A DNA stretch of 64,000 nt from a virus (Duplodnaviria > Heunggongvirae > Uroviricota > Caudoviricetes): the IMG/VR virus record IMGVR_UViG_3300027710_000010, positions 53,763 through 117,762 of that record. The stretch is one strand, 5' to 3'. A program made the translations under genes and the position numbers. The first letter of the stretch is position 1. The number at the start of each line of letters is the position of its first letter. Of this stretch, positions 11,838 through 61,339 are shown piece by piece. The notes under the pieces were generated by a model. The model had not been told where the DNA came from. It searched no databases and saw only the letters and a list, made by a program, of their open reading frames with translations.

Positions 11838-11843
11838 ATGTTT

Positions 11844-11919: not shown

Positions 11920-11924
11920 TAATT

Positions 11925-12008: not shown

Positions 12009-12013
12009 ATGTT

Positions 12014-12088: not shown

Positions 12089-12092
12089 AAAT

Positions 12093-13125: not shown

Positions 13126-13282
13126 TGACAAAAGAACTTCTGTAACACAATGATTGTATTATAGTTTTATTTATATCTTTTGTCAAGAACCATATTGAAA
13201 TGTGGTATTTTTACGACATTCACGAATCGCCTGTACTACAAAAGCACCCCTATAAATAAAAACATTATACAAAGGATTAACA

Positions 13283-19119: not shown

Positions 19120-19140
19120 ATCATTGATGATATATAATTT

Positions 19141-21142: not shown

Positions 21143-21143
21143 T

Positions 21144-38688: not shown

Positions 38689-38961
38689 TGTAAAGTTCCT
38701 TTACGTATTATGCCAGGCGTCTATCGCTTGGACTTGTTGTTAGTATAACATAGACCCCATGTCTATGTCAACTAATTTGATTAATAACATTCCTTGTAAA
38801 TTGTATAACGAGGTTTTGGATACAATTCAGAAAAGTTTTGTTCTTTAATGTACTTGTTCATATCACCAGCATTGAAAAACATCTTGTTAAACACGGTTAT
38901 GTGCTTACCGTCAATTATTTCGGTTACTGTAAGATAATTGCTTTTTGCGACTCCGGCCATT

Positions 38962-41339: not shown

Positions 41340-41424
41340 ATTTGTATTTCCTTTTAATAAAGTGACTGTACGTCACTTGTACATTATATAGTATTGTTGA
41401 TTCTAGAGCAAGATTTTTATAGTC

Positions 41425-41450
41425 AAAAGAAACCCGCCGAAGCGGGTCCT
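41425..41450 (-). terminator. rho-independent terminator at 3' end of tmRNA coding piece
   Basis: GGACCCGC-ttcg-GCGGGTTTCTTTT on minus strand. Confidence 0.7.
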
Positions 41451-41850
41451 ACTATTTTGGATGACACGGTATAGTTACCGCGCAAGGGCTGTTTTTTAGG
41501 CAGCTAATTCGAAACGCTCAGCGTTTGCGGCGCGAGCCACAGAAGCTGGAACTTCGAAAAACTTGAAAGTAGATGTTTTTGCATTTACTAGATTTTGCTT
41601 GATTTAGAGTCATCGCCTACTCAGTTGCCGTCTTCAATATCTCACCCTGTCGAAACCATGGCAGGCCCATTAGTAAGTATGCTAACCGGTATACAAAGCC
41701 TTCTGTACACCACGGAGGAATAAATTCCTGCTTATCCGTTAAACTGTCGCTAACATACTTGCTGGTGGACCTGGCGGGAGTCGAACCCGCGTCCAAGATG
41801 CCTTTTCTCTAAAGGAATTACAACTATACCGCTATTATACGGCATAATAT
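41430..41850 (-). ncRNA. ssrA: tmRNA (ssrA), apparently circularly permuted two-piece form; tag reading frame 41531..41496 encodes (A)ANAERFELAA-stop
   Basis: Minus strand contains a tRNA-like acceptor/T-arm ending ...GCGGG-TTCGACT-CCCGC-CAGGTCC-A-CCA at 41763-41790. About 110 nt downstream lies a 5' acceptor strand GGGCCUGCCAUGGUUUCGACAGGG resembling the E. coli tmRNA 5' end, then GCC GCA AAC GCT GAG CGT TTC GAA TTA GCT GCC TAA, then a terminator. Confidence 0.7.
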
Positions 41851-41914
41851 TTATCCTGTCAAACTTTTTGGTTGTTAAAGCAATAAATACATACATAACA
41901 TTGGGAGCGAATCA

Positions 41915-42196
41915 ATGGGTGATATTTTTAAAATTATTGGCGACTTAGGTATGCCAGTAGCGGCAGCACTAGCAGGTGGGTACTTCGTGTACCTTACTAT
42001 CAAATTGTTATTACAAGGAGTACTTGGTTCAATCAAAGGTATGGCCGGTATTATCACAGCACTAGATAACCGTGTCAAAACCATGAACCACGACGTTGTA
42101 CGTATTGATACTATCGTATCGAATGCATTAGGGTTGCGCCCAGATGTAGAGCGAATTGCTCGTGCTGATGGTAAGAATGATGCAAGAAGGGATTAA
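41915..42196 (+). CDS. small membrane protein
   Basis: 93 aa, hydrophobic N-terminal half; first gene of a plus-strand block. Confidence 0.45.
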   Translation: MGDIFKIIGDLGMPVAAALAGGYFVYLTIKLLLQGVLGSIKGMAGIITALDNRVKTMNHDVVRIDTIVSNALGLRPDVERIARADGKNDARRD

Positions 42197-42198
42197 TT

Positions 42199-42408
42199 AT
42201 GTTGTACATTGATTACTCTTGGGACCTTAGTCCAAGTGGTATTAGATTAGATGAAGAACTTAACATAGACAAATTAGGCTGGAAGGCCGGGGATCTGTTC
42301 GAAGTTACAAACACCAACGGTCGAGCGATGTTAAGAAAAGTAGATCCTGTAGTAGCATTTGCTAAGGGATATAGAGTAAACTTTGGAGAAGAAAATGGAC
42401 GTAGTTGA
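42199..42408 (+). CDS. hypothetical small protein
   Basis: 69 aa ORF. Confidence 0.4.
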   Translation: MLYIDYSWDLSPSGIRLDEELNIDKLGWKAGDLFEVTNTNGRAMLRKVDPVVAFAKGYRVNFGEENGRS

Positions 42409-42718
42409 GTTAGTCAATAAGTATGGCTTTCCAATTGTCATGGCAGTTGGAATGGGCTTCATTATCAAGTACGTTTGGGAATGGGCTACAAAGGAAGTTA
42501 AACCAGTTATCTCAGAAGCCAATACAGTGCTGATTGCGCTAATTGATCGTATACGTATGTTAGACAATGACTTGATTCGATTGAATCAAAAAGTAAATAC
42601 AGTACTGCACTTGCGAGGCAAGACTATTGAATATGAACGTGTTGAAGCTGAGAAAGAAATTAATGAAGTTAAACAAAAGAAAGAAGATGATAAAACTGCT
42701 AGTGCAGGAGAGTCATAA
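42383..42718 (+). CDS. hypothetical membrane/coiled-coil protein
   Basis: 111 aa, one TM segment. Confidence 0.45.
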   Translation: MEKKMDVVELVNKYGFPIVMAVGMGFIIKYVWEWATKEVKPVISEANTVLIALIDRIRMLDNDLIRLNQKVNTVLHLRGKTIEYERVEAEKEINEVKQKKEDDKTASAGES

Positions 42719-42838
42719 AGAACACCTACCTTAGGACCGTACTTGTACGGAGGTGTGGCCGGCTGCTGGCTACAAATGTTGGGAGTCGTGCCCCGGAAGA
42801 CATTTGTAAAGTGAGCATTTTTTACGACTAAATATTCA

Positions 42839-43552
42839 ATGGATAAAATCATAGCAACGTTAGTGATGACGCACATCACAATAGTATGTGTAACATTATA
42901 CTTACACAGAAGTCAAGCACACAGGGGCATTGAGTTTCATCCCGTAATAAGTCACTTCATGAGACTTTGGTTATGGATGACTACAGGGATGACTACCAAG
43001 CAATGGGTAGCTATACATCGTAAGCATCATCAAAATACAGATGTAGAAGGTGATCCGCATAGTCCGCATGTGTTCGGAATTTGGCAACTAGTTTTTGGTG
43101 GTGTTAAATTTTATAATCTAGCAGGTAAAGATGCACACATGGTTATGAAATACGGCATGGGCACACCTAAAGACTGGATTGAACGCAAACTTTATACACC
43201 CCACCATCGCCTTGGCATTCTCTTAATGCTAGTCATAGACTTATTGTTCTTTGGGCCTTGGGGATTTTTAGTGTGGGGTGTTCAAATGATATGGATACCA
43301 TTCTGGGCCGCAGGATTTATTAACGGCATCGGACACTGGTGGGGTTATCGCAATGGCGAAACTAAGGACCGCAGTCACAACGTCAGTCCTTGGGGAATTT
43401 TAATTGGTGGAGAAGAACTACATAACAATCATCACCTAGATCCTGCTAACCCTAAACTAAGTCGTCGCTGGTTTGAGTTTGATATTGGCTGGATGTGGTT
43501 TAAGATTTTTGAATTGCTAAAGTTAGCTAAACTTAGAAACTCTTCGCAATAA
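42839..43552 (+). CDS. membrane fatty-acid desaturase family protein
   Basis: Histidine boxes HRKHH and HNNHH with hydrophobic spans. Confidence 0.7.
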   Translation: MDKIIATLVMTHITIVCVTLYLHRSQAHRGIEFHPVISHFMRLWLWMTTGMTTKQWVAIHRKHHQNTDVEGDPHSPHVFGIWQLVFGGVKFYNLAGKDAHMVMKYGMGTPKDWIERKLYTPHHRLGILLMLVIDLLFFGPWGFLVWGVQMIWIPFWAAGFINGIGHWWGYRNGETKDRSHNVSPWGILIGGEELHNNHHLDPANPKLSRRWFEFDIGWMWFKIFELLKLAKLRNSSQ

Positions 43553-44282
43553 ACTCTGCTTCGGGGATACGGGTATGTGTATTTTTACTACCTAACACAA
43601 CAACAATACGTCTTCCTATTTCAGTATCTAGCATCATAACAATACAACCTCCACTGGCTCTTATGTAGCCAGTTTTGCTGACTATGAAGTTATGACGTTT
43701 GCCAATAATAGGATTTGTGTTATTAAAAATAAACCACTGTTTCTTTAGTTTAATTTTAACTTGGCTTGTTTTACTAGTTTCAACAATTTCTGGATACTTT
43801 GCTGACTCTAAAACAATTTTAATTAATTCTTCAGCTGTGCTGACATTCATTACACTGAGTCCAGTTGGGTCTATATACTTTGTTTTTGTTAGCCCAAGTT
43901 GTTTGGCTTTTGCGTTCATAGCACGTATACATTCAACAGTTCCGCCGGGGTAATGCTCGCAAAGCATTAGAGAGGCGGTGTTATCGCTTTTAACCATTGC
44001 CAACTGTATTAGTTCTTTGCGTGTGTATGGTTTGATAAAATCATTTAAATCTTGATTTGCATCTAATACAACCATAACAGTCATCAATTTAGTAATACTG
44101 GCAATGCTACGCTGTTGCTCAGTATTTTCGCCTTGTATTATTTTGCCGTCGGCACTTGCCACCAACCACGATGTTGCTGTAATTGGCACAGGTTTGGCAT
44201 TGGAGGCGTTTGCTTGCCCAACATATAAAAGGGCAAAAAATGCCAATAGATATAAGATTCTATACATTTGTCTAGTATACAC
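43533..44282 (-). CDS. D-alanyl-D-alanine carboxypeptidase/endopeptidase (peptidase S11)
   Basis: Signal peptide; SITKLMT (SxxK), SDN and C-terminal KTG-like block. Confidence 0.7.
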   Translation of the reverse strand: MYTRQMYRILYLLAFFALLYVGQANASNAKPVPITATSWLVASADGKIIQGENTEQQRSIASITKLMTVMVVLDANQDLNDFIKPYTRKELIQLAMVKSDNTASLMLCEHYPGGTVECIRAMNAKAKQLGLTKTKYIDPTGLSVMNVSTAEELIKIVLESAKYPEIVETSKTSQVKIKLKKQWFIFNNTNPIIGKRHNFIVSKTGYIRASGGCIVMMLDTEIGRRIVVVLGSKNTHTRIPEAEFIAKSF

Positions 44283-44303: not shown

Positions 44304-46358
44304 TTATTTTTCGTGTGCAACAAATTCACCGTTCCAGTTGTCGCCCAAATCTTGGTGTTTCATAAACTCGCAACGTTCAATCCAAATCTTATAGTACTTG
44401 TCCATTTGTCCGCCAAAGTTACCCTTTAGCTTTTTACACATAGCGGCAGCTTCGTCAAACTTTTTAGCTTTGTATAAGTCATGCATTACTTCGTGTGCTA
44501 TCTTATCTCTAGTGTAATCAACACCACGAGTACGTAACACAGTATAAATTAAGTCTGCTACTGTCTTGCCTTTTGGTTGCAAGTTGTCTAGCAACAAGTA
44601 GAAGAAATCATCTTTAGTTCTGTTGTATGTTTCTGCCCCAACAATGGCCAATACACCGTACGCTTTACAACGTGCTTCTAAACGTGCCGCAGTACTAACC
44701 ATGTCACCTAGAATGTCATAGCTGTGACGTTCTGTTGAACCCATCTCACCGATAAAGCCAATACCTGTGTTACAACCCCAACCCATTGCGGCTGGCGGTA
44801 AACCTTGTGCTTCCATTAGCTTGGTATATTCGTCTACAGCATCCAACATTTCTAATCCTACCTTAACGATAGTACGAGCATGATTAGGATCTTCAATAGG
44901 AGCACCGTGTATGTGCATTGACGCATCACCTACATACTTGATAACCATGCCCTTGTTATCTAACATTGGCTGACTGATAGCATCCATGTATCCGTTCATG
45001 TACTTGCCTAGCCCAGCGACGTCATCTCCATAGTGTTCGCCAATTGGTGTAAAGCCACGTAGGTCACTAAACATAACACTTACGTCTTTTCGCACACCAC
45101 GCTTGATTAAGTCTGGATCTTTTTGTAACAGCTCTACTACTTCTTTTGAACAGTATCCAGCAAACTGTTTCTTAATAGCTTGCTTCTGTAAGAACTCGCT
45201 TACAAACTTAACGCCATAAGTATGCAGAGCGACAAGAATAAGACCAAACGAGATTGCTGTCGCGTCTGATAAGATGAGCCAGCTATTGAAAGCGTACATA
45301 GTACCAGGAATGATGGCACCAACAATAACCACAGTAGCACAAATGCCAACATAAGTCCACCTCGATAAGAAAATTAATAAAATGCCAAATGCTAGTAATG
45401 CTAAAACTTCAACTCCCTCGGCATAGTCGGGACGTTGTATAACTACTCCATTAACCATTGTGCCTATTGCGGCTGCTTGTACATCCTGTGGCCATACAGC
45501 GCCCTTGCTTGTTGGCACTGGATTGGCAATACCTGCGGCTGTTGGTCCTACGATAACAATAGCGCCCCCAAAATCTTTAGGTAGCTCCATTAGACTTACC
45601 TGTTTATTTTCTTGGCTCCAGTCAATCCATACACGACCCAACGCATCAGTAGTAATTGGACCAAATTTAGGAATTCGCATTTTTTCAACACCACCAGCGA
45701 ATAGCTTAATCTGTGTTGTTGAATCTCCTGCTACTACACGAAGTGTCTCCATAGCAAGGCTTGGATAGATATCTCCGTTAACTGTAATGACTAATGGTAG
45801 TCGGCGATTAACACCGTCAATTTCTTCTTTAGTATGAGTTGTGCCAACTCCTATGGCATTATTTTCCAACATTGGCACATTGGCAATTAGACCACCGTAC
45901 GGAGTAATGCTGTCTACAAATTCTGAATTGATAACTGCTGTTCCAGGCTTGCGTGGACTGTTCTTAGTTTTACCCTCGTAAGGTGTTGATGAAAGAACTA
46001 CAGGATATTGTTTTAGGGCATTTGCGAGAACAGCATCGCCACCAGTACGATCAGACTCAGCCATGATAACATTGAGCACAACAAGCCCAGCGCCACGATC
46101 GTACAAATCTTTAATAATCTTAGCATACTCTGCCCTCGGTAATGGCCATTGGCCATACTTATCTAAACTAGCTTCGTCTATGTTAACTGTATAGATATTA
46201 TTTTCTGTAGGTGCTTTGCTAGTAATTAGTGTATCAAAATAACGTAGCCTTACACTTTCAACAAATGTAGGATCTGCAACACGTATGCTCAATACTAACG
46301 CTAGTGTTAGTAGTGCAGTCCAAGGGCTTAACAATGTTTTCTTAAATTCTATTTTCAT
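44304..46358 (-). CDS. CHASE2 sensor domain-containing adenylate/guanylate cyclase
   Basis: N-terminal TM plus periplasmic CHASE2-like domain, 3 TM helices, class III cyclase core (FSDLRGFT). Confidence 0.7.
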   Translation of the reverse strand: MKIEFKKTLLSPWTALLTLALVLSIRVADPTFVESVRLRYFDTLITSKAPTENNIYTVNIDEASLDKYGQWPLPRAEYAKIIKDLYDRGAGLVVLNVIMAESDRTGGDAVLANALKQYPVVLSSTPYEGKTKNSPRKPGTAVINSEFVDSITPYGGLIANVPMLENNAIGVGTTHTKEEIDGVNRRLPLVITVNGDIYPSLAMETLRVVAGDSTTQIKLFAGGVEKMRIPKFGPITTDALGRVWIDWSQENKQVSLMELPKDFGGAIVIVGPTAAGIANPVPTSKGAVWPQDVQAAAIGTMVNGVVIQRPDYAEGVEVLALLAFGILLIFLSRWTYVGICATVVIVGAIIPGTMYAFNSWLILSDATAISFGLILVALHTYGVKFVSEFLQKQAIKKQFAGYCSKEVVELLQKDPDLIKRGVRKDVSVMFSDLRGFTPIGEHYGDDVAGLGKYMNGYMDAISQPMLDNKGMVIKYVGDASMHIHGAPIEDPNHARTIVKVGLEMLDAVDEYTKLMEAQGLPPAAMGWGCNTGIGFIGEMGSTERHSYDILGDMVSTAARLEARCKAYGVLAIVGAETYNRTKDDFFYLLLDNLQPKGKTVADLIYTVLRTRGVDYTRDKIAHEVMHDLYKAKKFDEAAAMCKKLKGNFGGQMDKYYKIWIERCEFMKHQDLGDNWNGEFVAHEK

Positions 46359-46822
46359 GATGGTCTTCTTACCTCTACATCGTGCAGGGAACCGTCTTCT
46401 TGTGTCCAATTTGGCAACAGCTTACTAAAAATTCGACCATATACTCCTGATCTACCACTAGACCCTTGTATATCATATTCTATCACTCGAATTTTGTCGT
46501 TGTATTTTACTATAAAATCTTTTATTATATCAGTGATTGCTGATATAACTTGTGCCGCATTACCAGTTCCGAGCATGTTAACTTTTCCGTTGCCGGTGAA
46601 ACTGATCTCCCAATAACCGCTGTAGTCGACTTCTTCGTTTTCGGCGTCGTCATCATAACCTATTTCATCGCGGTCCGCATCTACGTGATCGTATTCTGAA
46701 TTGCTGGCCCTGAAGTCGTACTCCACACCACCCACAAAAAATTCAGCGTTGGCGTAGCGTTCTCCGCGTGAGGTCCATTTCCACGGAACTGAAGTCGCCG
46801 CCATTATTTCGTCGATTCTCAT
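46355..46822 (-). CDS. hypothetical acidic protein
   Basis: 155 aa. Confidence 0.45.
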   Translation of the reverse strand: MRIDEIMAATSVPWKWTSRGERYANAEFFVGGVEYDFRASNSEYDHVDADRDEIGYDDDAENEEVDYSGYWEISFTGNGKVNMLGTGNAAQVISAITDIIKDFIVKYNDKIRVIEYDIQGSSGRSGVYGRIFSKLLPNWTQEDGSLHDVEVRRPS

Positions 46823-50010: not shown

Positions 50011-51108
50011 TTAATTTTGAGTGATAGTAATCATACTAGTCGCTCCTTTGTTTATGTTTTGTATAATAGTCTGACCATCTTGAATAATTGTTAGTGTAGC
50101 ACTCCTATTCGTGTCAAATGTCACTGTTGCATTGTGACTCGCTGCCTTATACAATGTTACCTGACTAGCATCATCATTATAATAATACATCAACCCTAGG
50201 GGCTTATTGTAACTGTATCCGGGTAGTATTGGGTCGTCTAATTCATTTGATAGAAATGATCTATTTTGTTTGTCCAAATCACTTTCTGTGTAAAATTCTA
50301 ATAGATCAGCGTTTAAATCATTTCGATCTAATGCTTTATTATCATCAAGTTTGTTTTCTTCTAGTCCATTAAATTTCAATAGATCAATATTCAGTTCGTT
50401 AAAATCTAACCCAGCACGATCTCGTTTAGTGTTGACACTATCGTCATTTACTTCTGGCGGTTTGCTAACAATTAACAAGTTATTAATGTTGGCTTGATCT
50501 ATTTTAACCACTGCAGGCTCGCTTGGTCGGGTATACGCACTATTAACTAATGTTGCTTGGTACGGCACGTCCAATAACACTATTCCGGCTAATGTGCTAA
50601 CTTCAATAGCGCCAGTGACACATGCGCCTTTGTCATCACAACTAGGCAATAGCATGACAAGACTTCGACCTAACTCGTCTACAGTCATACTAAAATCAGT
50701 GCCCCGTACTGCGATAGTTGCTGTTGGAGTTTTTATTGCGACTTGTTGAGGATTGTTTTTAGCAATCTGACCACTAGCATAACGAGCAGTACCCAGCGCC
50801 ATATTAATAGCTAACTTGCCTGTACCTTTTTTTGGGTCATAGACAAAATCATCAATAATCAACTTACTCTGTTCTGTAATTTTAACAGTAGTTGCATCAT
50901 CAAAAGTAATTGTTGCCTTAGCCTTTGCTGTGCTAATAGCATCGTTCATTTCTACGCCCGTGTTGATGCTCGAGGATAAACTTTTCTTATCTCGTACGAT
51001 CTCTGTTGGGCCCGACTGCTCAGTAACCTTGCCCACACCTGCAAACCCGTTAATCGGTTTGAGTAACAGAAATATTATTATTAGAGCCGTTACTGTTGAT
51101 AGATGCAT
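50011..51108 (-). CDS. FecR-domain protein
   Basis: N-terminal TM; AIKTPTATIAVRGTDFSMTV block typical of the FecR domain. Confidence 0.5.
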   Translation of the reverse strand: MHLSTVTALIIIFLLLKPINGFAGVGKVTEQSGPTEIVRDKKSLSSSINTGVEMNDAISTAKAKATITFDDATTVKITEQSKLIIDDFVYDPKKGTGKLAINMALGTARYASGQIAKNNPQQVAIKTPTATIAVRGTDFSMTVDELGRSLVMLLPSCDDKGACVTGAIEVSTLAGIVLLDVPYQATLVNSAYTRPSEPAVVKIDQANINNLLIVSKPPEVNDDSVNTKRDRAGLDFNELNIDLLKFNGLEENKLDDNKALDRNDLNADLLEFYTESDLDKQNRSFLSNELDDPILPGYSYNKPLGLMYYYNDDASQVTLYKAASHNATVTFDTNRSATLTIIQDGQTIIQNINKGATSMITITQN

Positions 51109-51703
51109 TCTTAGCCATGCCGCCAGTTTGTAATAATGTAACCAAATTTGGTGTACCTGGAGTTCCACCACCTGCTACTGTGATATCAGCTGTATGCATA
51201 CCTGCACCGCTTGTAGTATGCGATACGTTATTATTACTACCTGCAATATTGATAACACTAGACAACACATTACCGGCTAACATCTGCGTGACATTATTAT
51301 TGTTACCAGTTACATTATTAGTAATAGTATCAGCAATACATGTTTCGCATTTGATAAGTTGGTTGTTTCCAGACCCGTCAGCTGACACGTTAACAATAGT
51401 TCCTGTACCTTTAGTCATGCTGTCCAGCACTAAACTAAGAGTGTTGCTTGCACCAATTTGAGTTACCGTAACGACGTTGAAGTCGCCTTTAATCATTGCC
51501 GGAGTTGTTGAACTTGTTTTTGCAACGTCTCCGTTGACTAGGTTTCCTGCGCCCGTTTGTGTTATACTTACAGTAGCATTATCGCCCACCTGTTCTACGT
51601 ACACATCATTGGCCCATGCTCCCGATGACAACATTCCAGTTGCCATTAGTATTGCGAATACTTTTCTCGACAATCCGCCACCGCCTTTTATTCTTTTAAT
51701 CAT
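51050..51703 (-). CDS. curlin-repeat-like secreted protein
   Basis: Signal peptide then imperfect repeats (ATVSITQTGAGN, NVVTVTQIGASN, NISVTQTD) resembling CsgA/CsgB repeats. Confidence 0.5.
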   Translation of the reverse strand: MIKRIKGGGGLSRKVFAILMATGMLSSGAWANDVYVEQVGDNATVSITQTGAGNLVNGDVAKTSSTTPAMIKGDFNVVTVTQIGASNTLSLVLDSMTKGTGTIVNVSADGSGNNQLIKCETCIADTITNNVTGNNNNVTQMLAGNVLSSVINIAGSNNNVSHTTSGAGMHTADITVAGGGTPGTPNLVTLLQTGGMAKNASINSNGSNNNISVTQTD

Positions 51704-51743
51704 TTTACTTCGCTCCTTGATACATCGCTAGATTGTATCGTTG

Positions 51744-52562
51744 TTAGTTTACTTCTTGATCTATTAAAGGTGCCACCTTTTTAAATCTCCAAATACCCTT
51801 CTTCTCGCCTTGTATTATCATATCATATACTGCCTGTTCGATAGCTACTCGAACAGCATATGTTGTTGGTTCATTTAATGCCATACCATTTTCTAATTCT
51901 AATGCTTTAGTTCCCGCATCCACAAACCTTAATACACCAACGTTGTGCTGTGTGCTGTAAATAGTTTTACTCACAGCGTTCGACAGTAGGATCTCTCCAC
52001 TATTCACGCTTATCAGTCTCAAACTAATCACAACTTCATCAACACGGTACTGCTGACTTCCACCGATGCCTAAAAATCTAGCACCGTTACCTCCACTGCG
52101 AATATTGCTGTCATAGCCAATAATCCCACCTTCAATCATTATACCTGCCACTGTCATTGGTTTAAGTTGCTTCGCATCCTTACCTTCGTATACTTCACGT
52201 TGGTTACGGATCAACTGTCGTTCTTTAATAAGATTATCTAATCCTACACGCTCTACTACTTTAAACCAATTCTTACTGTCCTGCAAGCTCTTGATTAAGA
52301 ATACTTCAGACCCCTGTGTTACTGCTTTACTAAACAATGCTAACTTGTCGTTTGGCTTCATTTGTCCAGTTTTATCTTGGAATCCGTAAACTGCAATAGT
52401 CATCGGAGGCCCATCCAAATCTGGTATCACCTCAGTTAAGCTCTGTCGCGGTTTTAACACTACAGGCCCCTCTTTTTTCGCCATGTCCATATGTACTGCG
52501 GCGCATCCGGAGAGCATTATTGTAAAAAATATTGCTAGTATAAGTCTCATATTAGAATGCAA
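51744..52562 (-). CDS. csgG: CsgG-family secretion channel lipoprotein
   Basis: Lipobox LSGC; TIAVYGFQDKTGQ, IMIEGGIIGYDSN, GGNGARFLGIGGS blocks align with E. coli CsgG. Confidence 0.8.
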   Translation of the reverse strand: MHSNMRLILAIFFTIMLSGCAAVHMDMAKKEGPVVLKPRQSLTEVIPDLDGPPMTIAVYGFQDKTGQMKPNDKLALFSKAVTQGSEVFLIKSLQDSKNWFKVVERVGLDNLIKERQLIRNQREVYEGKDAKQLKPMTVAGIMIEGGIIGYDSNIRSGGNGARFLGIGGSQQYRVDEVVISLRLISVNSGEILLSNAVSKTIYSTQHNVGVLRFVDAGTKALELENGMALNEPTTYAVRVAIEQAVYDMIIQGEKKGIWRFKKVAPLIDQEVN

Positions 52563-52992
52563 AGCTCGCTATAGGTACAATTATTTCAGTGGTGCCAGTG
52601 GGTGCAACGATAACCAACTTTACTTGCCCTAATGTGGTATCTTTAGACCATGTTATTGTTGTACCTTGAAACTCCATAGTTCCAGTATTACCGCTAGTTT
52701 CGGCAAACAACTGATCTGCTAATTGCTTAGATAATTGTGCGTAGATACGTGCTTCTACGTTGACTAGAAATTTAGCTAAGTTGGTACTCTTGGCGGCAGT
52801 TTCTGCTTTGGCAATTGCCGCCGCCTCTTCTGATTTTATCTCTTTCTTCTTGTTTTCTTCCAACTGATGGATCGACAAGACGTGAGCCGAGAACCCATTG
52901 CCTGGTATAAAGGCTGGGCTTTGGAAGTTATGTAATAGTTCAGCTGCCGACACACACGTAGGCAACAGTACTAGTAATAATAGTTTTTTCAT
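52552..52992 (-). CDS. csgF: CsgF-like curli assembly protein
   Basis: Signal peptide then NFQSPAFIPGNGFSA resembling the CsgF FxNPxFGGNP N-terminus; adjacent to csgG. Confidence 0.55.
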   Translation of the reverse strand: MKKLLLLVLLPTCVSAAELLHNFQSPAFIPGNGFSAHVLSIHQLEENKKKEIKSEEAAAIAKAETAAKSTNLAKFLVNVEARIYAQLSKQLADQLFAETSGNTGTMEFQGTTITWSKDTTLGQVKLVIVAPTGTTEIIVPIASFAF

Positions 52993-53114: not shown

Positions 53115-54932
53115 TTATTGTTTTGGTAGCACTGTTGCCAAGTATGCAGGTGATGCACTTTGTTGGCTATCGTTAAAGTTAAAGCCTGAAGTTATTTTAA
53201 TATCTCCGCTGGCTAGTTTACCTAATAGATCTTTACCGTGGCGTGCAATGCTGTAATCCAATGATCTAGTGTTTAAGAACAGTATAGATTCAACACCGTT
53301 TTCTCTATTATAGCTTTCGTACGCTAAACGTGTGTAGGCCAGCATCATAGCATCAACATCAATAGTGCCATCATCATACAGTGTATTCCATACGATGTCT
53401 TCCAATTTAACACCCTTAAATCTATTACCTTTGCTGTCAGTGTAGCTTTGTTCAACTTCAGACAAGTTAGTAATCAACGCATTAAACGTATCTGCAAACA
53501 AATCGTAAGTCAATTCGGGAGTACTATATACTAGAATTTCCTCATTTAACTTGTTAAGGCCTTGCTTGTTAAAGTTATATTTCGCGGCTTCTTTAACACC
53601 TTTTTTAGTCTTGTTAAATGTGTTAGCACTGAAGTTAGCACTTGTGGTTTCAACAGCATCACCCTTCTTGGTAAAGCTGGTCCATTTCATGTTCTTTGGT
53701 GCACCTTTTTTAACAATCCGTTCAATGCCAGCTTTCCATACAGGCCATGCCGCTGGTCCTTTAAGGATCTTGTCACTGTTTAGTCTACCACCAGAATCTG
53801 CACCGGCTTTGATTTCAAATTCTTCGCCGCCTACTTCTAAGTCGCCCTTGTCTTTTGCCTTGTTACTTGGACTTCCCATCATACATAGTGCCATTTCTCC
53901 AGGACCAACAGCGCCACTAGTTTTGCCTGGGCTCCAAGAGAATACTTTTTGTTTTGCAAACAAATCAAGCATAGGTTGCCATTCTTGATTTACGTGATCT
54001 CGTACATTGCCCCTATCCGAGCTTACTAGTGATAGCATGTCAATAACATCGCCATCTAAACAGGCCTGTAAGAAGTTCTGTATTTCCTTCTTATCTATTT
54101 GCTGATTTTGTTTGCTGATATCTAGCACCATTGAGAACAGGGATTGTCTAAATGTTGTGGTAAAGTTTCTAGCATTATCATGCAACGATTTTGCTCTGGC
54201 GCTTAATGCATCATATTCGTCTGGCTTAATTGCAACGTAGTCTTGTACTTTGTTTCCTAGAGCAACTAACAAGTCGTTTACTGTTTGAATAAACTCCTCT
54301 GCGGCTCTTAACTTCTCTGTGGTGATTTTAAGTTCTGAAGCAACATCTTTAAGTTTCTTAAGAGTTGCAACCATCTCATCTAAATTCTTTGTAAGGTCTG
54401 CTGTAATACGTTTTTTAATCTCAGCAGGCATTTTTAAAGAATCATAATATGTAATATTTTGCCTTGTTTCTTCAATAGCTGCCTGTAACCTTGCCGCACG
54501 TTCCTCAGTGCCAACAATTGGTTCATCTACTGCTAGTTCTTCAGCTTCTTGAATTGCTGGTTCTTCTTCGGCAGGCTCTTCAGTAGGCTCTTCAACAGGT
54601 TGTGGCTCAACTAACTCTTCTGGCGAAGCTTCTGGTGCTACTGGTTCTAATTCAGGTTGTTGAGCAATTTCATCTTCTGATGGTGCGTCATCAACTACTG
54701 CTTCTTCTGCCTTACCAGTTGCAAGTAAATCACTGACAAACTGTGCAATCCTGGCATTAGTAGATTCTAATTTATCTGCAAGTTTATCTAAAATCCCAGC
54801 TTTTTCTTCAGGAACTTGACTAGCAATAGTGCTAATAAGATCCAGCTGATTAATAGCTTTTACGGCAGATAAGTCAGTTACGTTACTAGTATCTGTTTCA
54901 ATTAATAATGGTTTAAACTCGGTATATCTCAT
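53115..54932 (-). CDS. hypothetical large acidic protein
   Basis: 605 aa with acidic, Glu/Pro-rich central region. Confidence 0.5.
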   Translation of the reverse strand: MRYTEFKPLLIETDTSNVTDLSAVKAINQLDLISTIASQVPEEKAGILDKLADKLESTNARIAQFVSDLLATGKAEEAVVDDAPSEDEIAQQPELEPVAPEASPEELVEPQPVEEPTEEPAEEEPAIQEAEELAVDEPIVGTEERAARLQAAIEETRQNITYYDSLKMPAEIKKRITADLTKNLDEMVATLKKLKDVASELKITTEKLRAAEEFIQTVNDLLVALGNKVQDYVAIKPDEYDALSARAKSLHDNARNFTTTFRQSLFSMVLDISKQNQQIDKKEIQNFLQACLDGDVIDMLSLVSSDRGNVRDHVNQEWQPMLDLFAKQKVFSWSPGKTSGAVGPGEMALCMMGSPSNKAKDKGDLEVGGEEFEIKAGADSGGRLNSDKILKGPAAWPVWKAGIERIVKKGAPKNMKWTSFTKKGDAVETTSANFSANTFNKTKKGVKEAAKYNFNKQGLNKLNEEILVYSTPELTYDLFADTFNALITNLSEVEQSYTDSKGNRFKGVKLEDIVWNTLYDDGTIDVDAMMLAYTRLAYESYNRENGVESILFLNTRSLDYSIARHGKDLLGKLASGDIKITSGFNFNDSQQSASPAYLATVLPKQ

Positions 54933-54942
54933 AGTCTAGTAT

Positions 54943-55626
54943 TTAGTGTATTTCAGGGAACAAGCAATCCTGAATGAACACTGCTACATCGTCGTCGTTT
55001 AGCCCTAAACTGGACATGACTTTAGGAGTATGCGGGTTTTGTTTTTGATTCTGTGCGTAGTAATTCTGTGCATCTTTGGTATTGACCGCTTGACCTTTAG
55101 ATTCGTCTACACATTCCAAATAATGATTTATTACAATGTGTGCCAATGATTCAAGTTGCTTTAGTTCGTCACCATCACTAACATTACCTGCGGCAATCAT
55201 TCCTGGACTAAAGATACGTTCTGCCCAATCTGGAAGTTTACGTTTCTTGTTCCATTCATACCTTTCAGCTTCTTCACCAAAGTATTGGATCATTGGATGA
55301 TTAGCATCACCTGCAGGACTATAGTCAATAAAGCATCCAGTAATTTTGTTTCTACCTGCTACTACATCAAAACCAAAGATAGGAGCAGGATTATCTAAAT
55401 GCGGGAAAATGCAACAATGCATCATCCATAATCCCTTAGTCTCACGAGCATCTACAACATCAATGTGTGCTCGGCGATATCGACTGCTGGCCCAAACTTT
55501 GTTGACCCAGCCAGGTTGATTGAATCGATCCATACCAGGTTCATGAATTATACTGCCAGTTGCATAAAACTGTGACTCAAAATATTGCTCAATTTTAATT
55601 AGCGTGTCCCAAACATTACTCTCCAT
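54943..55626 (-). CDS. ferredoxin-dependent bilin reductase (PcyA/PebS-like)
   Basis: HIDVVDARETKGLWMMHCCIFPH block typical of the FDBR family; adjacent to heme oxygenase. Confidence 0.65.
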   Translation of the reverse strand: MESNVWDTLIKIEQYFESQFYATGSIIHEPGMDRFNQPGWVNKVWASSRYRRAHIDVVDARETKGLWMMHCCIFPHLDNPAPIFGFDVVAGRNKITGCFIDYSPAGDANHPMIQYFGEEAERYEWNKKRKLPDWAERIFSPGMIAAGNVSDGDELKQLESLAHIVINHYLECVDESKGQAVNTKDAQNYYAQNQKQNPHTPKVMSSLGLNDDDVAVFIQDCLFPEIH

Positions 55627-56161
55627 GGTACAAGTCTCGCATCATCTTAATAGCATACTCAAATGCCACACGAGCCTCATCACCTAAGTCGTCTGTAAGT
55701 GTTACACGAATGGCCATCTTCATAGCATCGGCGTTCTCAAAGTCGTAGAACTTGCCACTGCTGATATGTGCTACCTGCTTCTTAATGATTTGACCACCGA
55801 ATAGGTCGCCCATATGGCGGCAGTATAAATGCGCCTTAACAAGATGTTTGCGTTGTTCATCATTACCTAGTTTGTGTAAGTATGCTTGGTACTCAAGTGT
55901 TGCAGGAGTTAGGTAACAGTAACTACCATCATCCAACTCTAGGAAGTCTGCAAGTATTCCCTTGAGGCGAGGTAGTGCTGGCATTGTGACAAGGAATCCT
56001 TGACGCTGACAATACCATTCAATGGGGTCATAAATTGCAAGTAAGTTATACAGATAGTTCCTGTAGTCTTCCTTACCGATCTTGCCGCTAAGTAACATCT
56101 TAGCGAACGTTGTTTTCTCTGCTTCGTGATGTAGATCTTGTGTAATCTCTCGTAAGCTCAT
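55616..56161 (-). CDS. heme oxygenase
   Basis: LREITQDLHHEAEKTTFAKMLLSGKIGKEDYRNYL resembles the HO-1 proximal helix. Confidence 0.65.
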   Translation of the reverse strand: MSLREITQDLHHEAEKTTFAKMLLSGKIGKEDYRNYLYNLLAIYDPIEWYCQRQGFLVTMPALPRLKGILADFLELDDGSYCYLTPATLEYQAYLHKLGNDEQRKHLVKAHLYCRHMGDLFGGQIIKKQVAHISSGKFYDFENADAMKMAIRVTLTDDLGDEARVAFEYAIKMMRDLYHGE

Positions 56162-56460
56162 TCTTCTTCCAATTTAATTTGTAATGGAAAGCCACTTGCA
56201 CGAGCAAGTTGTGTTGACTCTACTGCTTTTGCTTCAGCAATTTCAAAACCATAGGTTCCAGCCACACCACTGCCGTCTTCATGAATTTGCGAAGTGATAT
56301 TTCTAGCTACATCATCTGTATGCTTAAACACTTCAGTAAGTATACTGATTACAAAATCCATCGGGGTATGGTCATCATTTAGTAGGATAACTTTCCATTT
56401 TTTAGGCTCTTGTATTTTTTGTTTAATTTTTTCGTCTAATTTAATATCTGCTGTGGTCAT
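56158..56460 (-). CDS. clpS: ATP-dependent Clp protease adaptor ClpS (start trimmed to second Met)
   Basis: KVILLNDDHTPMDFVISIL core. Confidence 0.7.
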   Translation of the reverse strand: MTTADIKLDEKIKQKIQEPKKWKVILLNDDHTPMDFVISILTEVFKHTDDVARNITSQIHEDGSGVAGTYGFEIAEAKAVESTQLARASGFPLQIKLEEE

Positions 56461-56475
56461 AGTTCTCTCCAGAAG

Positions 56476-56495
56476 TAGGGGAAGTTTCCTTCCCC
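56476..56495 (-). terminator. hairpin terminator after the sHSP gene
   Basis: AGGGGAAG-tttc-CTTCCCCT. Confidence 0.5.
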
Positions 56496-56503
56496 TTATT
56501 ATA

Positions 56504-56944
56504 TTACTTAACCTCGACGATGTCAATCAAGCGTGGTTTCTTATCCTCAGGGATAATTCGCTCAATAGCAATCGACAAAATGCCGTCTTTAATTTCGGCA
56601 CCCTTAACTATCATGTGTTCAGCCAATGTAAACTGACGGACAAAATCACGGCTGCTCAATCCCCTGTGCAGGTATTGACGCTGTGCTGGTTCATCAGATG
56701 GTTGACTTACCCCCTTGATAGTAAGTTGCTCTTGGTCAACTTCAACAGTGATTTCATCTTTCTTGAAGCCTGCTACTGCTACTTCAACAGAGTAATGATC
56801 ATCATCTGTTTTTACTACATTGTAGGGTGGATAGTTTGTGTTAAGTTGATTTGCGAATCTGCTCTCAAATGTGTCAAACATTTGATCAAATCCTACAAGT
56901 GCTCTGTTTAGAGCTTGTGTGTCGAATCGTGTTAATGCGTTCAT
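56504..56944 (-). CDS. small heat-shock protein (Hsp20/alpha-crystallin)
   Basis: YNVVKTDDDHYSVEVAVAGFKKDEITVEV alpha-crystallin domain. Confidence 0.75.
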   Translation of the reverse strand: MNALTRFDTQALNRALVGFDQMFDTFESRFANQLNTNYPPYNVVKTDDDHYSVEVAVAGFKKDEITVEVDQEQLTIKGVSQPSDEPAQRQYLHRGLSSRDFVRQFTLAEHMIVKGAEIKDGILSIAIERIIPEDKKPRLIDIVEVK

Positions 56945-57031
56945 AGTTTTCTCCTTTAGTAAGCAAGAACGTGTTGGGCAACTCGCCCATTAAATGCAAC
57001 CCCAACCGGGCATTGCATGAAATTATTTATG

Positions 57032-57316
57032 TCAGATTTCTTCTAAATTCTTAATTGTGGACCACTTTTTTAGCTTTTCAATTTTAGCCTTAGTAGCTAT
57101 TTCCAATGCATCTTGAGTTATAATGCCCATCTTTTCCAAAATGCATATCATAGCAAGCATGTCGCCCAACTCTTCTTCCAAGTGTTCGCGGTTAGTTTTT
57201 GGTTTGCCGGGCTTATAGTTGTTTAAGCCAAAGCGACTGATTTTACTAACTGCTTGGATTACTTCTGCACATTCTTCCTGCAGAATATCCATCACTTCTT
57301 TAACGTCTGAATTCAT
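57032..57316 (-). CDS. MazG-like nucleotide pyrophosphohydrolase domain protein
   Basis: EECAEV ... EEELGD acidic metal-binding helices. Confidence 0.6.
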   Translation of the reverse strand: MNSDVKEVMDILQEECAEVIQAVSKISRFGLNNYKPGKPKTNREHLEEELGDMLAMICILEKMGIITQDALEIATKAKIEKLKKWSTIKNLEEI

Positions 57317-57843
57317 TCAAACTTCCTTCTCATTTTCTTGAACATTGTTTGAACTCCAATGGCCTGTCGTCGAGCATCTTCTAAAGCATGATGCTTATAT
57401 GCTTGTGGCATTTCTGGATCCATGCCTAAGTCAAACAGGGTACGTGTATCTCGAACATCCCAGAAGTTCCACGGGAATGGTTTGCCCATCTTTCGAAAGT
57501 AATGTTCTAGGATGATAATATCAAATGTTGAACCGTGACTCCAAAAACGACTGGATCCCACACAGAACTTGTAAAACTTTTCTAATGCTTCTTTACAGTC
57601 CACACGATTGTCTGGATTGAATGCTTCGTCCTGTGCGGCTTTATCTTGATCCGCCCACCATTTGATTGTGTTGTCGTCCACATAGGGATCAGCGAAAGTG
57701 CATGTATCTACATCAATGCGTAGATAAAGTTCGTCGTATACCTCATAGCCATTTGGGTTGAATGTCACTGCGCCCAGAGTAAGAATCTGAGCGTTTGGGG
57801 TGGTAGCTAAAGTTTCCAAGTCTACCATTAAATGCTTTGCCAT
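57313..57843 (-). CDS. DEDD-family 3'-5' exonuclease
   Basis: MVDLETL Exo I motif, later H..D block. Confidence 0.55.
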   Translation of the reverse strand: MAKHLMVDLETLATTPNAQILTLGAVTFNPNGYEVYDELYLRIDVDTCTFADPYVDDNTIKWWADQDKAAQDEAFNPDNRVDCKEALEKFYKFCVGSSRFWSHGSTFDIIILEHYFRKMGKPFPWNFWDVRDTRTLFDLGMDPEMPQAYKHHALEDARRQAIGVQTMFKKMRRKFE

Positions 57844-57908
57844 TATAGCCTTTCGTGTTATGTTTAAACTATTATAGCATAGTTGCAACAATAATCAAAC
57901 CATATTGG

Positions 57909-58121
57909 TTAATAAAGTTTTTTAGGTAATTGCTCTTTTTCCAACTTTTTCTTATAACGCTGGACTGCGGCTGCTTTTTTGCGTTTGCGTTTAGTTGTTG
58001 GTTTTTCGTAGAACTCTTTTTTACGTAGTGATTCTAACACTCCGTTATCTTCTACTTTCTTTTTGAATCTGCGTAAAGCTCTAATCGCATCTTCACCTTC
58101 TCGTACATATACTTTTGTCAT
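57909..58121 (-). CDS. rpsU: ribosomal protein bS21
   Basis: [54 protein letters not shown] aligns with bacterial S21. Confidence 0.85.
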
Positions 58122-58537
58122 TGTTCCTCTTCTTCCTCGTCATCGTCGAGTTCATCGTTGTCTGTTAATTGAGCTACGATTGCATCTAAGTTGTAAATCC
58201 TATTTTTACTAATAAGTCCATACGGAGTTATTTCGTCACTAGTTATATAGTGTGTATTAGGTTGTGCTAACAAAAAAGTAGTAAACAGTTTAGTAGTCGG
58301 ATCACAGTTATCAATATCGACGATTGTAATATCGGCCTGCATTGCTACACTCAACAACCAGCTAATATCAGTTTCATTTTCATCATAGATAAAAACATTA
58401 AGTTCATCTATGTTATGACTTAAAATTGTTTGAAATTGTTGTTTGACATTCAAAGAAGGTTTGACCAATAAGTAACTCAAATTTAAATTGAACAACTTAT
58501 CAGGCGGTGTAATAACGTTTATTTTTCCTAAGTTCAT
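58118..58537 (-). CDS. hypothetical protein with acidic C-terminus
   Basis: 139 aa, ends DDDEEEEEQ. Confidence 0.45.
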
Positions 58538-59973
58538 TTGTTAGCTTTATTTTTAATTCGTTGCCAGATGGATTCTTCAGATTGCTCGCTGTTTTGGACG
58601 TAGGTCACTGTCGAGTCTTCTTCACCTGTTGATCTTTCTGTTTGACTATGTAAGTCATTTTTTTTTTGGTCATTGGGTTCAATGACTTCAGTGAGATCTG
58701 GTCTGTTGCGTGGAAAGTCGGGATCAGGCGTTAGCTTGTTTACCTCGGTTTGCAACTCAGGAAAAATTTGGTAAGTTGATGCGATCTCTTCCTTTCTTTC
58801 CTGTGTTGTGTCTTCCCACGGCAATGTATTGATGATGCCAAGTTGTTTTAGTTTTTCATGATGCTTAATAGTATCATCAGGGTTCTCAGCCTTCCATTGG
58901 GACTTTGCTGATTTTTCCTTTTCTACTTCTTTCTCGGCCTCTTCGATCATTTTGTTCCATTGTTCTAGTGGTATATCTTCTACCACTTCTACAGGCTTTT
59001 CCTCTGTTGCTGTTATATCACCTCCTAGTGCAGTCAACGGTGTTTCGCTTGGAACTTCTTCTGTGTGTGTTTGTTCATATCCATAGTTATCCTTAGGATG
59101 TTCACCATGGTCAATAAATTTTTTGATAGCTACTTCTTCAGGAGCAGGTTCCGCAATTTCTTCTGCTGTTGGCTTTTCTCCGACATCTGCAACATACGGA
59201 TCTGGAGTATGTTCTTCATCCTCTTTCTTCCAACCAAATGTCATTTGTGCAGCCAACAACATGATAACTGCTAATGGATCAAACACTACAATGATTGTAA
59301 TAATAACCCAGGTAACTGCTTTTTCTAAAACAGTCTCATCAGTCTCGCCGTATACAAATGCCGCAATATATTTTAACGGACCAACTTCTGCTTCCACCTT
59401 ACGTACTTCAGCGGCAATGGGTGCCCGTTCTTCACTAAGCTGTGTAATTGTTTTCTGTTCGGCTGTAATCTCAGAAAGTAATCTAGTGCGTTCTTTGGCC
59501 TGCCCTCTACGTAGCGCAACTGCCTTGTCCGCACCTTTTTCATCTTGACTTCGACCCATAACTTGGTCCACAGCCTCATCCATTTGTTTGAGTGCTTTGC
59601 GGTTAGCATCGATGTTTTCCTTTGCTGTCTTAATCTTCTCGTCGTAAATTGAAATCTTTGATATTACATCGCCCGACACTAAACTTTGATCGCTGTGTGC
59701 TTTTGATAAAAATCCAAAGATGCCCATTGATGTAATAAGCATTAACACAATTACCGCAGTAGTCATGTAAATTTTCATTAATCTCGGAGCACGGCTCCAG
59801 TTTGCTTTTAACCAACTAGCGCAGACAAGTTTAGCAACTTCTAGTGTAGTACCCATCACTATGATAGGAATAACAGCCGCAGAGAAAATAGCAGCCAAAC
59901 CTACTACGGAATAGTAGATTGCGACTGCTGAAATTGTTAAACCAGTTAGTAGTAGTAAGAACGCTAAAGCCAT
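58534..59973 (-). CDS. membrane-anchored coiled-coil protein
   Basis: 3-4 N-terminal TM helices, long charged coiled-coil middle and acidic C-terminal region. Confidence 0.5.
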   Translation of the reverse strand: MALAFLLLLTGLTISAVAIYYSVVGLAAIFSAAVIPIIVMGTTLEVAKLVCASWLKANWSRAPRLMKIYMTTAVIVLMLITSMGIFGFLSKAHSDQSLVSGDVISKISIYDEKIKTAKENIDANRKALKQMDEAVDQVMGRSQDEKGADKAVALRRGQAKERTRLLSEITAEQKTITQLSEERAPIAAEVRKVEAEVGPLKYIAAFVYGETDETVLEKAVTWVIITIIVVFDPLAVIMLLAAQMTFGWKKEDEEHTPDPYVADVGEKPTAEEIAEPAPEEVAIKKFIDHGEHPKDNYGYEQTHTEEVPSETPLTALGGDITATEEKPVEVVEDIPLEQWNKMIEEAEKEVEKEKSAKSQWKAENPDDTIKHHEKLKQLGIINTLPWEDTTQERKEEIASTYQIFPELQTEVNKLTPDPDFPRNRPDLTEVIEPNDQKKNDLHSQTERSTGEEDSTVTYVQNSEQSEESIWQRIKNKANK

Positions 59974-61139: not shown

Positions 61140-61339
61140 TTTGCCAACTCCTGACTTTGAGTTTTAACGGTGTCAACACCTTTATCAAGCATCTTAGCGA
61201 TGCCACCAAAACCTACTGTTGCCAGGACCAATCCAAAAATAGTGCCTGCGATAAAGCCTCTCATATCATGCCTTTCTGTGTGTGTTAATAGTAAAGCCTC
61301 TACAGTACATAGTATACTATAGAGGCCAGTGTTTGTCAA
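61136..61339 (-). CDS. small membrane protein
   Basis: 67 aa, two TM helices. Confidence 0.4.
   Translation of the reverse strand: MTNTGLYSILCTVEALLLTHTERHDMRGFIAGTIFGLVLATVGFGGIAKMLDKGVDTVKTQSQELAK

Follow-up and report, generated by a model that had tools for sequence, protein, structure and literature searches.

A conserved run of clpS, heme oxygenase, PcyX-type bilin reductase, bS21 and neighbouring genes in the probable early accessory region of an uncultured freshwater jumbo phage

Why would a phage carry, side by side, genes for bilin reduction, heme degradation, proteolytic targeting, protein holding, nucleotide hydrolysis, nucleic acid turnover and translation, and do such genes act as one module or as several? 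This question is raised by positions 54,943 to 58,121 of a 64-kb stretch of DNA (64,000 nucleotides; hereafter the window) from the viral record IMGVR_UViG_3300027710_000010. The genes of this run encode a ferredoxin-dependent bilin reductase (FDBR; pcyX), a heme oxygenase (HO; hemO), the ClpAP adaptor ClpS (clpS), a small heat-shock protein (sHSP; hsp20), a MazG pyrophosphohydrolase (mazG), an exonuclease (exo) and the ribosomal protein bS21 (S21; rpsU). A preliminary description of the locus, made from its letters without database searches, had proposed that they form a module with which a marine huge phage takes over translation and proteostasis. We consider it likely instead that this run forms a conserved part of the early, sigma-70-driven accessory region of an uncultured freshwater T4-like jumbo phage of approximately 300-380 kb, composed of a string of small, independently promoted units.

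Seven minus-strand open reading frames (ORFs) lie back to back in the ORF listing of the window and exactly tile 54943-58121 (Table 1). All seven pass the Pfam gathering cut-offs, with concordant NCBIfam and PHROGs assignments, and the seven gene identities of the preliminary description therefore stand. Two translation starts were corrected, that of clpS to the ATG at 56460, which is preceded by a GGAGAG ribosome-binding site and gives 100 aa, and that of exo to the ATG at 57843, which gives 176 aa; both corrected starts match the JGI gene calls on the identical contig. A TTG at 56526 was rejected as the clpS start because it falls within the -35 hexamer of a promoter that matches TTGACA-17-TATAAT perfectly.

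The juxtaposition of these genes is not due to chance, since dozens of independent viral contigs show the same arrangement. Relatives of the FDBR are encoded on 333 IMG/VR contigs, and we analysed the best 80 of the 333, each with an FDBR at least 70% identical to that of the window. The longer loci are strictly collinear, in the order tm479-(orf139)-S21-(exo)-(mazG)-hsp20-clpS-HO-pcyX-(orf605)-csgF-csgG, and this order is held in dozens of viral contigs at amino-acid identities of 45-92%. S21, hsp20, clpS, HO and pcyX are constant members, exo is usual, and mazG, orf139 and orf605 are variable, mazG being missing from many collinear loci. Constraint on the encoded proteins was gauged by the invariance of catalytic residues; synonymous sites would be saturated at amino-acid identities of 50-85%. 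A megablast search of positions 54000-59000 against 50,697 phage genomes returned no match, so that the run has no close cultured relative in that collection. Every gene type of the run has already been published for phages, and the block is, in this sense, well conserved and fairly ordinary.

Five of the seven families are typically cellular, and the run might be read as host bacterial DNA introduced by misassembly, by a mis-binned contig or as a prophage flank. We regard this as scarcely credible. The JGI, ENA and Logan assemblies, which are independent of one another, each yield this sequence, the FDBR is found on the 333 viral contigs described above, and phage genes and phage-type promoters lie on either side of the run. 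Several phage-only families are encoded in the window, as are NAMPT, an NMNAT-NUDIX protein, 37 tRNAs, a tmRNA and rIIA (441.8 bits), the last of which is 35-37% identical to the rIIA proteins of T4-like phages. The run genes have a GC content of 35-43% and a GC content at third codon positions (GC3) of 22-44%, which match those of rIIA and of other phage genes. Among the matches listed, 80 bacterial S21 loci average 61% GC versus approximately 40% in the window; HO, FDBR, hsp20, exo or mazG lie nearby in none of them, and ClpS in one. The preliminary description had allowed for phylogenies that would place all of these genes within one bacterial genome neighbourhood, and no such neighbourhood appears among these loci. 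The DNA is phage DNA rather than host DNA. Furthermore, the block has been resident in the phage lineage for a long time, because its GC and GC3 match phage genes, the phage S21 copies are monophyletic and diverged, and the bacterial S21 loci are without the other genes.

Conservation of the block is accompanied by exchange within it. Two main HO clusters (25 and 19 distinct sequences) and several small ones, more than 45% different from each other, occupy one shared slot between clpS and pcyX (loci L004-L083), and the pcyX copies next to the swapped HO types are still 70-85% identical to the window copy. Divergence of this order at a single slot, beside a steady neighbour, points to the exchange of HO alleles in place. 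In the window lineage clpS is always immediately 5' of HO, even where the HO allele has been replaced. A separate phage lineage carries the pair in reversed order, pcyX then HO, as in L059 (IMGVR_UViG_3300042564_002458, 121 kb). In L059 and approximately 17 similar loci pcyX is 72-74% identical to the window copy and HO is distant (33%). The L059 pair adjoins genes for a DNA polymerase, an endonuclease and an exonuclease and is without the other five genes of the run (those for ClpS, the sHSP and S21, and the exo and mazG of the run), which makes HO and pcyX a mobile two-gene cassette. The HO of the window is short, spanning positions 6-165 of 204 in the Heme_oxygenase profile; it matches HO-1 and HO-2 structures in the PDB at approximately 2e-10, and these alignments include the proximal His11 and the GDLFGGQ motif. 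No substitution at H11, E15, G118, G122 or G123 occurs among 59 sequences.

To determine how the run may be transcribed, we considered its promoters and gene junctions. In the 64-kb window, 24 promoters of the sigma-70 type agree with the consensus at 11 or more of its 12 positions; twelve are perfect and all 24 lie on the gene strand, versus approximately 3 expected from shuffled sequence. This abundance and strand bias resemble the signature of a T4-type early region, and the T4-type late motif TATAAATA occurs twice in the 64 kb and nowhere near the run; we infer early timing for the run. The exo-mazG pair and the clpS-hemO-pcyX unit each have a promoter of their own in the window, and S21 follows tm479 and orf139 in a string in which stop and start codons overlap at both the tm479/orf139 and the orf139/S21 junctions. 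Overlaps also join exo to mazG (the 3' end of exo overlaps the mazG start), clpS to hemO (an ATGA overlap) and hemO to pcyX (the final 11 nt of hemO overlap the pcyX start). Among the relatives, a promoter precedes exo in 82-92% (82% at 11 or more of 12 positions), hsp20 in 30-36% and clpS in 24-28% (28% at 10 or more of 12), and one matching at least 10 of 12 positions precedes the orf155 homologue in 67%; none has a strong promoter directly before S21, mazG, HO or pcyX. The hairpin between hsp20 and clpS could close the hsp20 transcript at its 3' end or act as a 5' stem; its stem is not followed by a U-tract, and it overlaps the expected transcription start. On this map the run appears to span two to four early transcription units rather than one module.

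These results bear directly on the proposal of a single module, in which S21, ClpS, the sHSP and the other products of a marine, cyanophage-like huge phage would act jointly in taking over host translation and proteostasis. The genes are contiguous, co-directional and collinear in many relatives, the same window holds 37 tRNAs and a transfer-messenger RNA (tmRNA), and in a survey of phage bS21 loci Hsp20, 'Clp protease' pVOGs and exonuclease were among the commonest neighbours (PMC9723584). However, the run is split by separate promoters, three of its seven genes (HO, pcyX, and exo or mazG) are without a role in translation or proteostasis, mazG and orf139 are variable, the HO alleles are swapped, and HO with pcyX is found elsewhere as an independent cassette. 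Lake relatives and betaproteobacterial affinities, together with the type of the bilin reductase, further oppose the marine and cyanophage-like parts of the proposal. We judge joint action as one module to be unlikely, and the run is better described as a string of small units.

The type of the bilin reductase is apparent from several comparisons. The FDBR of the window matches the structure of PcyX (PDB 5OWG) with 230.9 bits (E=1.4e-67) versus 55.7 bits (E=4.7e-14) for the best PcyA, and its score of 87.9 bits lies below the NCBIfam equivalog cut-off for PcyA of 206 bits. Its residues D56, M68, H70 and D87 correspond to D55, M67, H69 and D86 of PcyX, for which roles have been described (PMC13446030, PMC11480375), and are invariant across 55 aligned sequences. 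The His/Asp pair is present, and Asp rather than Glu occupies the position of PcyA Glu76, a substitution that separates phycoerythrobilin-making PcyX from phycocyanobilin-making PcyA (PMC13446030, PMC11480375). By these marks the window bilin reductase is of the PcyX type and, because the diagnostic Asp is kept in all 55 aligned sequences, its predicted product from biliverdin IXalpha is phycoerythrobilin, formed via 15,16-dihydrobiliverdin (15,16-DHBV). PcyX is the form tied to phages of heterotrophs and not to cyanophages. The reading of HO with a bilin reductase as a cyanophage hallmark is not supported here, the enzyme being neither the cyanophage PebS nor PcyA.

In the literature PcyX has been described as marine only so far, and the single characterised freshwater phage enzyme of the FDBR type is a PcyA (PMC11480375). 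The closest cultured relative of the window FDBR, at 48% identity, is that of Pelagibacter phage Mosig, which also has an adjacent HO. As in the phage hemO-pcyX cassettes represented by the marine metagenomic PcyX EBK42635 (PDB 5OWG) and by Mosig (EXVC030M), the HO and FDBR genes of the window adjoin and overlap. Mosig is a 141-kb marine pelagiphage, whereas the window pair, unlike that of Mosig and the marine contigs, resides in a lake jumbo phage of approximately 300 kb or more with betaproteobacterial affinities; it is preceded by clpS instead of 2-oxoglutarate (2OG) oxygenases and ferrochelatase, and its HO is just 28% identical to the Mosig HO. A second set of comparators, made by description only, is provided by the freshwater phages CB_2 (vHemO/vPcyA), TP6_1, BML_S_1 and CB_1 (Chen et al. 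2020; PMC11480375). These are likewise large and T4-related, with a GC content of 32-44%, many tRNAs, and HO and AX-clade FDBR genes that are often adjacent. The CB_2 enzyme is without the Asp55 of PcyX and makes phycocyanobilin (PMC11480375), whereas the window FDBR retains the Asp. The gene alaS, a 'broken cassette' partner in the literature, was not found among the window ORFs scanned.

The ClpS of the window matches ClpS2 (PDB 4YJM) with E=4.5e-20, and alignment to PDB entries shows its NDDxTPM and H motifs; an N-terminal extension of approximately 19 residues precedes the core. The N-degron pocket residues N34, D35, T38 and H66, numbered after what we take to be the E. coli ClpS reference, are invariant in 46 phage copies, and M62 is replaced by Thr in 36 of the 46. 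The ClpA-contact residues E79 and E82 are invariant in all 46, and K84 is Lys or Arg in 45. The window contains no ClpA or ClpP gene. ClpS is uncommon in phages, as had been supposed, with 17 of 50,697 phage records containing it, mostly those of jumbo phages. The presence of ClpS in jumbo phages has been noted before, with retargeting of host ClpAP proposed (Iyer et al. 2021; PMC7824862). Like the ClpS proteins of the cultured jumbo phages of the Pseudomonas PA5oct group, Sinorhizobium Phosso and Salicola SCTP-2, that of the window is a stand-alone adaptor for which use of host ClpAP is presumed; unlike them, with 30-47% identity in the core, it is encoded in a transcription unit shared with hemO and pcyX.

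The position of clpS admits a reading of clpS-hemO-pcyX as an 'iron-mining' operon, in which ClpS would direct ClpAP to degrade host proteins, hemoproteins among them, HemO would open the heme, PcyX would clear inhibitory biliverdin, and the Fe2+ released would pass to the IscU and IscA of the phage for the loading of its many Fe and Fe-S enzymes. In this lineage clpS invariably sits directly 5' of HO, its stop codon overlapping the HO start codon, irrespective of HO replacement; this is consistent with such an operon, as is the single perfect promoter ahead of the three genes. The phage also encodes abundant iron enzymes: in the window these are three radical-SAM proteins, two 2OG-Fe oxygenases, a hydroxylase-like protein and a fatty-acid desaturase, and past its right edge the same contig (L164 1-3575) encodes the Fe-S scaffold proteins IscU (NifU_N) and IscA (Fe-S_biosyn), an Fe-superoxide dismutase (Fe-SOD) and NrdA/NrdB. 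The supply of iron has been considered as a role of phage HemO in earlier work (PMC11480375). However, the HO and pcyX cassette is found unaccompanied by ClpS in both Mosig and the L059 lineage, and adjacency in a dense phage genome is weak evidence of coupling, so that we hold such an operon to be improbable. Glutaredoxin is also encoded beside IscU and IscA on this segment of the contig, and genes for Hc1 histone-like and PAAR-like proteins lie nearby.

Independently of ClpS, the benefit of HemO and PcyX to the phage is most likely iron release and heme turnover, which we favour because the phage encodes so many iron enzymes. Alternatively, the bilin itself could be the point, with phycoerythrobilin or phycocyanobilin serving either as an antioxidant or as the chromophore or signal of a bilin-binding protein of host or phage, for example a phytochrome or BBAG globin, and iron being incidental. 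PcyX is kept with invariant catalytic residues wherever HO is, and the enzyme pair of the freshwater phage CB_2 can supply a functional phytochrome chromophore (PMC11480375). Yet no phytochrome, GAF or globin partner was detected by Pfam among approximately 50 window ORFs scanned, and light harvesting is not expected in heterotrophic Betaproteobacteria. A bilin product as the sole purpose is, in our estimation, doubtful, and iron release with heme turnover remains the favoured benefit.

The bS21 of the window is full-length and scores above the TIGR00030 equivalog cut-off (62.7 versus 28.95 bits). The 42 phage S21 copies form one clade with a mean identity of 61%, versus 85% among bacterial copies, and this single, highly diverged clade suggests that the phage capture of S21 was a single and old event. 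The bS21 of Pelagibacter phage HTVC008M has been shown experimentally to enter 30S subunits in E. coli (PMC9723584). The window resembles HTVC008M and the freshwater Bacteroidetes phages (Chen et al. 2022, PMC9723584) in carrying a full-length bS21 in a large freshwater myovirus-type genome. In the Bacteroidetes phages the gene lies on the reverse strand in the structural late-gene region, with late expression and Bacteroidetes affinities (PMC9723584); in the window, by contrast, it ends an operon in an accessory region rich in sigma-70 promoters, and its nearest bacteria among the matches listed are Burkholderiales.

Immediately upstream, orf139 has a conserved acidic tail and, in those relatives that have it, lies directly 5' of the gene for the very basic bS21. 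A profile search of Pfam, PHROGs, NCBIfam and the PDB gave no match for orf139, and its 1,513 homolog clusters are all annotated as hypothetical. The AlphaFold2 model is poor (pLDDT 59), and its best Foldseek hit in the PDB (E 0.04) is to a generic flavodoxin/CheY-like fold and is not significant. At the other end of the run, orf605 is probably co-transcribed with pcyX; its homologs, at 27-49% identity, occur in few loci of the relatives. Genes for curli-type (type VIII) secretion lie directly 3' of the run at 50011-52992 (-), encoding CsgG (182.6 bits), CsgF, a curlin-repeat protein and a FecR-like protein, and are retained in many relatives at 34-88% identity.

The sHSP has the C-terminal I/V-x-I/V motif (...RLIDIVEVK, with LIDIV) and scores 128.9 bits against NCBIfam IbpA, under the equivalog cut-off of 212, with proteobacterial IbpA/IbpB nearest. 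A sigma-32 heat-shock promoter 5' of hsp20 was sought by eye and dropped, no match being convincing. MazG contains the acidic metal-binding motif EEELGD, and the exonuclease contains the motifs DLET, FD and H-x4-D (HHALED). The family of the latter is common in phages (748 records), which makes the label 'host-like' wrong for this gene. Both hsp20 and mazG are 'core' auxiliary genes of T4-like cyanophages, and the window likewise combines the two families in a T4-like genome; unlike the cyanophage genes, however, its sHSP is nearest to proteobacterial IbpA/IbpB and its MazG is a minimal 94-aa form that is dispensable among relatives.

The nature and habitat of the phage can be approached from the contigs themselves. 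The exact orf139 protein is encoded on a contig of 299,582 bp, and relatives are found on contigs of 345-379 kb. The rIIA gene, the promoter architecture and the contig size together indicate a putative T4-like jumbo phage of more than 200 kb, whose structural and replication core genes lie outside the window. Of the initial designation as a marine huge phage, the size is thus confirmed, and the marine habitat is not, the relatives coming from lake metagenomes. These include IMG 3300010885, a co-assembly of ice-covered Quebec lakes, and IMG 3300020160, a freshwater bacterioplankton metagenome; many others are perhaps from Lake Mendota, as their IMG IDs fall in the numeric range of Lake Mendota MAG (metagenome-assembled genome) labels.

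Two features point to the host. The 80 closest bacterial S21 proteins among the matches listed, drawn from GTDB species genomes, are nearly all from Betaproteobacteria, at 53-61% identity, the closest of these being Burkholderiales such as Limnohabitans, Rubrivivax, Comamonadaceae and Casimicrobiaceae. The tmRNA of the window is permuted and in two pieces, of the beta type; it has a perfect promoter at 41862-41834 and a tag that ends ...ANAERFELAA, the 28-residue tag given by ARAGORN probably starting too early. Because the closest S21 proteins are from Burkholderiales and the tmRNA is of the beta type, we consider a betaproteobacterial host fairly likely, and probably one within the Burkholderiales.

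Taken together, these observations suggest how the run could operate if it is, as we think likely, a string of early units, each modulating a separate host system shortly after infection. The bS21 protein, translationally coupled to the acidic orf139, would become part of host 30S subunits and skew the initiation of translation. For the DEDDh exonuclease and the small MazG the expected role is the recycling of nucleic acids and nucleotides, and for the IbpA-like sHSP the holding of unfolded proteins. ClpS would dock to host ClpA and shift ClpAP towards N-degron substrates and away from others. HemO would open host heme to biliverdin, Fe2+ and CO, and PcyX, with host ferredoxin, would carry out the four-electron reduction of biliverdin to phycoerythrobilin.

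Several points weigh against this account. The term 'early' rests on matches to consensus promoters, and only between one quarter and one third of the relatives have those of clpS and hsp20. That clpS and HO stay strictly adjacent, even where HO has been replaced, could reflect a functional link rather than independent units. Iron alone would not need PcyX, and its retention with invariant catalytic residues implies that the bilin itself, or the clearance of biliverdin, must matter too; HO turnover is limited by biliverdin release. A Cys-motif search of the window ORFs scanned found no phage ferredoxin motif, which places the source of the electron donor outside the window. Finally, with respect to the host, the S21 of the window is 54% identical to what we take to be the E. 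coli S21 sequence, versus 61% to the best betaproteobacterial copy among the matches listed. A bolder scheme, to which we would give little chance, makes clpS-hemO-pcyX a functionally coupled early operon of a large, uncultured lineage of lake jumbo phages that probably infect non-photosynthetic Betaproteobacteria, in which ClpAP would be redirected, heme iron would feed IscU/IscA and a dozen iron enzymes, and the 'pink' bilin would be a by-product or signal, while bS21 with orf139 as a dedicated acidic partner, the betaproteobacterial-type tmRNA and the 37 tRNAs would reprogram translation from the first minutes.

Table 1. Positions of the run genes, associated predicted promoters and other features in the window
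Feature	Position	Strand	Description and support
pcyX	54943..55626	-	FDBR, 227 aa; PF05996 Fe_bilin_red 61.9 bits (cut-off 31)
hemO	55616..56161	-	heme oxygenase, 181 aa; PF01126 Heme_oxygenase 79 bits (cut-off 23)
clpS	56158..56460	-	ClpAP N-degron adaptor, 100 aa; PF02617 94 bits (cut-off 23)
hsp20	56504..56944	-	IbpA/IbpB-like small heat-shock protein, 146 aa; PF00011 HSP20 71.7 bits (cut-off 20.8); phrog_432 9e-41
mazG	57032..57316	-	small all-alpha NTP pyrophosphohydrolase, 94 aa; PF03819 32.8 bits (cut-off 22); phrog_4856 2e-23
exo	57313..57843	-	DEDDh 3'-5' exonuclease, 176 aa; PF16473 Rv2179c-like 136.9 bits (cut-off 27); phrog_255 5.8e-49
rpsU	57909..58121	-	bS21, 70 aa, last gene of upstream operon; PF01165 Ribosomal_S21 70.6 bits (cut-off 27)
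Hairpin	56477..56496	-	8-bp, GC-rich, GAAA tetraloop; between hsp20 stop and clpS ribosome-binding site
Predicted early promoter	56498..56526	-	perfect TTGACA-17-TATAAT, 12/12; inside hsp20 3' end, reads into clpS-hemO-pcyX
Predicted early promoter	57871..57898	-	TTGATT-16-(TG)TATAAT, extended -10; 5' of exo, heads exo-mazG
Predicted promoter	61311..61339	-	11/12, nearest strong one 5' of the orf155...tm479-orf139-S21 string; promoter scan
orf139	58118..58537	-	alpha/beta protein with poly-Asp/Glu C-terminal tail; ATGA overlap with bS21
orf605	53115..54932	-	10 nt 3' of pcyX; no family match (Pfam, PHROGs, NCBIfam)
tmRNA	41428-41876	-	permuted, two-piece; Rfam beta_tmRNA 104 bits (gathering 84); tmRNA_permuted 122.8 bits
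tRNA genes	4981-12178	-	37 genes, all 20 amino acids; perfect sigma-70 promoters within, at 8013, 7597 and 5338

Other parts of the window also contain genes and elements of interest. Just 5' of the tRNA array, at 12843-13190, a promoter cassette of approximately 99-100 nt is present in four tandem copies, each with a perfect TTGACA-17-TATAAT. A region at 16929-23143, partly on the plus strand and with a GC content that falls to 33-36%, encodes three radical-SAM proteins (one with an HMPTM-type zinc ribbon), a QueC-like ATP-pyrophosphatase, a methyltransferase and an Asp/Asn-hydroxylase-like protein, and may be a modification or natural-product island. An SPFH/Band-7 protein is encoded at 31580-32416. 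The NAD salvage pair at 37294-39981 (-) comprises NAMPT (phrog_448, 544.6 bits) and an NMN adenylyltransferase-NUDIX fusion, and resembles the pair of KVP40-like phages. Envelope-related genes at 40617-44282 encode a Gcw_chp outer-membrane-like protein (180.7 bits), a fatty-acid desaturase and an S11 D-Ala-D-Ala carboxypeptidase, and a 701-aa fusion of a CHASE2 sensor with an adenylate/guanylate cyclase at 44304-46409 (-) recurs in phages (phrog_35576, 602 bits).

The locus contains nothing new in kind and provides useful leads for specialists. The location of bS21 in an early accessory region, coupled to the acidic orf139, is modestly new and indicates that phage bS21 is not always found within late structural modules. 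Modestly new as well is the extension of the Asp-bearing PcyX to an abundant lineage of freshwater jumbo phages, represented by at least 333 IMG/VR contigs and with likely betaproteobacterial hosts. The fixed arrangement of clpS, hemO and pcyX as one unit downstream of a consensus early promoter is new to a similarly modest degree and, in a genome with many Fe and Fe-S enzymes and with Isc scaffold genes, provides a context for asking why phages of non-photosynthetic hosts degrade heme.

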